In this document: positions 19,956-20,120 of the stretch, piece by piece | Layout: every line of letters starts with the position of its first letter | Position numbering within the stretch: position 1 is the stretch's first letter | Assembly (NCBI RefSeq): GCF_009931435.1 | Contig: NZ_CP043414.1 | Length of the DNA: 64,000 nucleotides | Direction: 5' to 3' (one strand) | Origin: Escherichia coli | GTDB lineage: Bacteria > Pseudomonadota > Gammaproteobacteria > Enterobacterales > Enterobacteriaceae | Position numbers and translations under genes: made by a program | The notes under the pieces: model-generated | The model's input: only the letters and a program-made list of their open reading frames with translations | Told to the model about the DNA's origin: nothing | Databases searched by the model: none

Positions 19956-20008
19956 AGTTATTTCCTTATTCTTAAGCAGGCGAAACAAAATCAAACGTTG
20001 AGCATAGT

Positions 20009-20027
20009 CCTTCCCCTTACGGGAAGG
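20009..20027 (-). promoter_or_regulatory. CueR (MerR-family) operator within cueO promoter
   Basis: Perfect dyad CCTTCCCCTTACGGGAAGG between a TTGACC -35 and TATGCT -10 on the minus strand with a 19-bp spacer, about 55 bp upstream of cueO ATG. Confidence 0.8.
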
Positions 20028-20120
20028 TCAAGCCGCAGACACAATTTAATCAACAATAATGGTCGTCGCCTCGCTCGCAGTGTGCTAACGTTTATCTTCT
20101 TTAAGCCCCTGGTAGAAGCA

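Follow-up and report, generated by a model that had tools for sequence, protein, structure and literature searches.

The DNA between the divergent cueO and yacC genes of this Escherichia coli stretch almost certainly carries PcueO, the CueR-dependent sigma-70 promoter of cueO, the gene of a periplasmic multicopper oxidase. The control of cueO by CueR through a promoter with a 19-bp spacer is already known and has been textbook knowledge since 2000. CueR, a homodimer of the MerR family, is the activator of copA and cueO (Outten 2000 and Stoyanov 2001, through PMC5329002 and PMC8169799). The known CueR target promoters are PcopA and PcueO; a PcueO-lacZ fusion reports CueR-dependent activation, and the specific CueR-DNA FRET signal is abolished when both promoters are deleted (PMC9396075). 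PcueO, for which there are copper-inducible PcueO-lacZ fusions, is treated as an established CueR target (PMC1526738; PMC5329002; PMC8169799; PMC9396075), and a CueR site with a 19-nt spacer was already listed in the yacC-yacK (cueO) intergenic region by comparative genomics (PMC1526738). The value of the present case is that of a positive control, a MerR-type promoter which can be recognised from the raw sequence. The promoter anatomy, the identity with K-12, the register shared with PcopA, the conservation, the mapped starts of K-12 and Klebsiella and the prevalence of cueR are the results given here. That CueR binds, that copper is required and that activation proceeds by DNA distortion is taken from the literature, and the structure behind the mechanism was solved on PcopA, not on PcueO.

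The window, which is the whole stretch of 64,000 nucleotides that was analysed, contains in this part the genes gcd, cueO (minus strand), yacC (plus strand), speE, speD and acnB. In the list of open reading frames cueO occupies 18405..19955 on the minus strand (516 amino acids, stop codon included in the coordinates) with its ATG at 19955..19953, and the RefSeq annotation of identical DNA also names the gene cueO. Direct reading of both strands between 19800 and 20300 confirmed the layout proposed by the sequence-only reading: on the minus strand TTGACC (20031..20026), the -35 hexamer of the CueR-dependent cueO promoter (P1), is followed by the spacer TTCCCGTAAGGGGAAGGAC (20007..20025), and this in turn by the -10 hexamer TATGCT (20001..20006). 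By count the spacer is 19 bp long, 2 bp over the sigma-70 optimum. A scan of 19850..20250 for conventional sigma-70 promoters, which admitted spacers of 16-18 bp only, returned no match, as is expected since the spacer of the cueO promoter is 19 bp. Downstream, the 5' leader of cueO comprises 40 nt (19956..19995, minus strand) and includes the Shine-Dalgarno sequence AAGGA at 19967..19963.

The predicted CueR operator, which has no strand of its own, lies at 20009..20027, the coordinates at which the repeat had been placed before. On the plus strand it reads CCTTCCCCTTACGGGAAGG, and it matches the CueR core box CCTTCC-N7-GGAAGG (PMC1526738; PMC8169799) with zero mismatches. The description of this 19-mer as a perfect palindrome holds for its arms: a repeat search returned two arms of 7 nt each (20009-20015 and 20021-20027), 100% complementary and 5 nt apart. 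It does not hold for the 19-mer as a whole, the symmetry of which is broken at positions 8, 10 and 12. Nor is the 19-mer contained wholly in the spacer, as the sequence-only reading had it, for its first two bases (20027 and 20026) coincide with the CC that ends the -35 hexamer. The operator thus shares 2 bp with the -35 hexamer and is separated from the -10 hexamer by a gap of 2 bp. With up to two mismatches allowed, CCTTCCC-N5-GGGAAGG occurs a single time in the 64-kb window, where 0.09 occurrences are expected by chance.

The dyad of the copA promoter, comparison with which had been suggested as a check, is built in the same way. PcopA of K-12 consists of TTGACC, the 19-bp spacer TTCCCCTTGCTGGAAGGTT and TAACCT. 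When the two promoters are aligned on the -35 hexamer they have TTGACC, a spacer of 19 bp and the CCTTCC-N7-GGAAGG core in common, and in both of them the box runs 2 bp into the -35 hexamer and stops 2 bp short of the -10 hexamer. They differ in the -10 hexamer (TAACCT in copA, TATGCT in cueO) and in the length of the perfect arms (6 nt in copA, 7 nt in cueO). In addition, the asymmetric centre of the operator is inverted between them: read in the same orientation they agree at 14 of the 19 positions, and with one of the operators flipped at 17 of 19. Such an inversion is compatible with binding by a symmetric homodimer. CCTTCC-N7-GGAAGG is the core box given by the cryo-EM study of the CueR activation complex, and activation was almost abolished when the box was shifted by 1 bp towards the -10 hexamer (PMC8169799), so the match in register between PcueO and PcopA is meaningful. 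The 19-bp spacer, the exact core box and the register of PcopA together support the assignment to the MerR-type (CueR) promoters. Similarly to PcueO, Pmer of Tn21/Tn501 and PzntA have spacers of 19-20 bp with a dyad operator and are activated by DNA distortion, whereas their operator sequences, regulators and metals are different (PMC1526738; PMC8169799).

In the activation described for CueR, the 19-bp spacer is bent and undertwisted so that sigma-70 can read both hexamers, and a contact of CueR with the sigma non-conserved region assists in this (PMC8169799). Applied to PcueO, this would mean that a CueR homodimer sits on CCTTCC-N7-GGAAGG and fills the over-long spacer. As long as Cu(I) is absent, the distance between the two hexamers would be too great and their phase wrong, leaving the promoter weak or repressed. 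Once it has bound Cu(I), Ag(I) or Au(I), CueR would kink and undertwist the spacer, bringing TTGACC and TATGCT into a geometry usable by RNA polymerase, and transcription would then start about 6 nt past TATGCT, at window position 19995.

Transcription starts are available from K-12 and not from the source strain; the transfer of K-12 coordinates to the window was checked base by base. Cappable-seq of MG1655 grown in M9 glucose gave two plus-strand starts in this region, 137043 with a relative read score of 6.37 and 137002 with a score of 1.80 (PMC4782308 supplement). The former corresponds to 19995 on the minus strand of the window and is the main cueO start (P1), and the latter to 20036, a secondary upstream start (P2). 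The strongest K-12 start is thus found 6 nt past TATGCT, and start-site mapping, which the sequence-only reading had named as the result that could overturn it, does not do so. In Klebsiella pneumoniae the cueO start, the upstream sequence of which is ...TTGACCTTCCCGTTACGGTAGGGTTTAAGCTCAAATA, is located directly downstream of the orthologous CueR-type promoter (PMC3415461 supplement); it follows directly on TTGACCTTCCCGTTACGGTAGGGTTTAAGCT. Since the mapped starts of both K-12 and Klebsiella lie directly downstream of it, the promoter stands where the sequence-only reading had put it.

Conservation was followed in 80 loci of Enterobacteriaceae, obtained by scanning species-representative genomes with the CueO protein. 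In 79 of the 80 species cueO is preceded by the -35 hexamer, the box in unchanged register, the 2-bp gap and TA[T/A]GCT, and the 19-bp spacing is kept in the same proportion (79/80). The -35 hexamer is TTGACC in 77 loci and TTGACG in two, and the -10 hexamer is TATGCT in 39 and TAAGCT in 38. Mean column conservation amounts to 0.90 in the block from the -35 to the -10 hexamer, 0.69 upstream of it (a stretch that includes the conserved yacC promoter) and 0.57 in the cueO leader, which is the least conserved stretch between species and is approximately 11 nt shorter in other genera. The cueO (cuiD) promoters of Salmonella, Klebsiella, Enterobacter, Citrobacter and related genera have the architecture and register of E. 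coli. They vary in two respects: most other genera carry GGAGGG in place of GGAAGG in the promoter-proximal half-site, which adjoins the -10 hexamer, with CCTTCC retained in the distal half, and about half of these promoters have a TAAGCT -10 hexamer. It is mainly in Escherichia and the Citrobacter freundii group that the repeat is perfect. Seen across species, it is the register that is invariant, and the perfect repeat is an Escherichia/Citrobacter speciality, a view that may be of modest use. Covariation between the half-sites at positions 5/15 was considered as well and rejected, as truly symmetric changes occur in just 2 of 47 unique sequences and most of the variation is one-sided.

The sole exception among the 80 species is Intestinirhabdus alba, in which no CueR box was found within 1.5 kb upstream of cueO. 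In this species a MITE-like element of approximately 267 bp with 25-nt terminal inverted repeats (1217..1483 of its locus) is situated directly upstream of cueO, the synteny is broken and a fragment of a chemoreceptor gene takes the place of yacC. The box is missing here because of a rearrangement, and not because the promoter is of a different type.

The secondary start P2 probably represents a minor promoter that exists in Escherichia. It is situated 5 nt upstream of the -35 hexamer and 41 nt upstream of the main start, with a -10-like TAAATT at 20048..20043 on the minus strand. In the Kim 2012 data, obtained without added copper, the corresponding K-12 position 137002 is the only E. coli cueO start reported (PMC3415461), with 20 reads (PMC3415461 supplement). 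Transcripts from P2 would cross the CueR operator. It may be imagined that an Escherichia-only P2, overlapping both P1 and the yacC promoter, fires through the CueR-occupied operator, and that CueR would then also act as a roadblock or occlusion switch for basal expression of cueO and possibly of yacC; we regard this as unlikely.

Another claim would be that P2 is the working promoter of cueO and that the repeat does no more than hold a repressor or roadblock, or form a hairpin in the leader RNA, with no part in MerR-type activation. The 137002 start is indeed present in two independent data sets, and the repeat, which would be part of P2 transcripts, gives a 7-bp hairpin on folding. However, in Cappable-seq the 137043 start is approximately 3.5 times stronger than 137002 (6.37 versus 1.80), and the start of Klebsiella lies downstream of the CueR-type promoter. 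The TAAATT region is unconserved beyond Escherichia, whereas the box and the hexamers are conserved, and direct reading revealed no recognisable -35 hexamer upstream of TAAATT. As to the hairpin, the fold of the leader from P2 is no better than that of shuffled sequence (z = -0.02), and at repeat positions 5/15 and 7/13 the changes mostly affect one side only, which would disrupt an RNA stem. Being weaker, unconserved and devoid of a -35 hexamer, P2 is rejected as the main explanation, and the claim as a whole is very improbable.

On the other side of the intergenic region, yacC has a promoter and start of its own (20083..20123, plus strand): an extended -10 element TGcTAACGT at 20083..20091, a transcription start at 20098 (K-12 136940, minus strand) and the ATG at 20121. 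The start codon is 94 bp from the end of the repeat, in agreement with the earlier estimate of about 95 bp. The yacC leader measures 23 nt in K-12 (PMC3415461 supplement), and the single source of the yacC start is Kim 2012. Between the cueO and yacC promoters there are two highly conserved non-coding blocks, of which 20079..20097 (highly conserved at 20080..20094) holds the extended -10 element of yacC and 20052..20061 reads CCATTATTGT on the minus strand.

That the palindrome arose by chance or belongs to yacC, with no role in the control of cueO, deserves hardly any credence: at least one match to CCTTCCC-N5-GGGAAGG with up to two mismatches did turn up in 8 of 100 shuffles of the window, and a "yacC-yacK divergon" is named in the comparative-genomics paper (PMC1526738), but the match is exact and stands in the exact promoter register, chance is excluded by a layout conserved in 79 of the 80 species, and a role for yacC is unlikely because the centre of the box is approximately 80 bp upstream of the yacC start at 20098 while MerR-type regulators act from within the spacer of their own promoter (PMC1526738; PMC8169799), and yacC has its own conserved extended -10 promoter.

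The CueR-dependent promoter of cueO is the same element as PcueO (formerly the yacK promoter) of K-12 MG1655. Across 201 nt, which take in the whole intergenic region, the window differs from K-12 by one substitution, at 20052, outside the promoter; the stretch that begins 33 nt upstream of the -35 hexamer and runs to the end of the cueO start codon shows no difference. The -35 hexamer, the box, the spacer, the -10 hexamer, the leader and the start codon are therefore all the same, and there is no functional difference between the two promoters. Within the species, 5,259 of 5,424 E. coli records carry a 51-nt core (19990..20040) at 100% identity. The surrounding 401 nt were matched in 5,424 of 5,426 complete E. 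coli genomes, with the genes annotated as cueO and yacC. Identity over these 401 nt is at least 99% in only 22 of 5,431 records, so the window comes from a less common lineage of E. coli.

The regulator gene cueR lies outside the 64-kb window; in K-12 it is approximately 375 kb away. It is present in 5,424 of the 5,426 complete E. coli genomes, and judging from the species it is very likely to be present in the source genome. The identity of cueR across E. coli is uneven: with the cueR gene as query (8994-9401 of the K-12 copA locus), 3,205 records are at least 99% identical, 625 fall between 95 and 99% and 1,594 between 90 and 95%. This suggests that a large part of the species carries a markedly divergent allele of cueR. 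We infer that the source strain behaves like K-12.

Outside the window, a mobile copy of cueO was encountered. In a plasmid search with the region, approximately ten true plasmids of 96-273 kb showed homology which ends at window position 20004, inside the -10 hexamer. On the E. fergusonii plasmid pRHB28-C21_3 (NZ_CP057359.1, 58342-66496), two copies of the IS4-family element ISVsa5 flank cueO together with a gcd fragment that carries an internal deletion. The junction at 4155/4156 of this locus corresponds to window 20004/20005, and the IS end ...GGGGATTCATCAG abuts TGCTCAACG... there, so that in the mobile copy neither the -35 hexamer nor the CueR box is left and the -10 hexamer is short of two bases. 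The 120-nt junction recurs at 100% identity in 10 plasmids of PLSDB and, among complete E. coli assemblies, in 17 records from 16 genomes, and among the matches listed pig, pork and pig-farm sources predominate.

The IS end that cueO adjoins is the one next to the transposase start. ISVsa5 is presumably of the IS10 type, and the outward promoter pOUT of IS10 reads out of the transposase-start end. Since PcueO is lost and the pOUT end adjoins cueO, the mobile copy is plausibly expressed independently of CueR, as far as can be judged from the junction. Possibly it is expressed without CueR control under copper-feed selection. In the literature searched, no description of cueO together with ISVsa5 or IS10 was found. 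That a mobile, mostly pig-associated copy of cueO has lost exactly PcueO is a by-product of this work that may be of modest use.

The full cueO-yacC region is also present in several PLSDB records labelled as plasmids, namely H18, H20 and H22 (4.8-4.9 Mb) and H14, H15 and H17 (0.8-1.3 Mb). These records are of chromosome size or are large fragments, and they resemble chromosomal DNA under a wrong label more than plasmids. Finally, matches to Rfam small-RNA families above the gathering score were obtained in the window, the families being given here in the order in which they are listed against the four coordinate ranges: ES036 at 18277..18318 (plus strand), in the gcd-cueO intergenic region, tp2 at 33805..33918 (plus strand), STnc40 at 45740..45808 (minus strand) and PssrA at 51455..51544 (minus strand).
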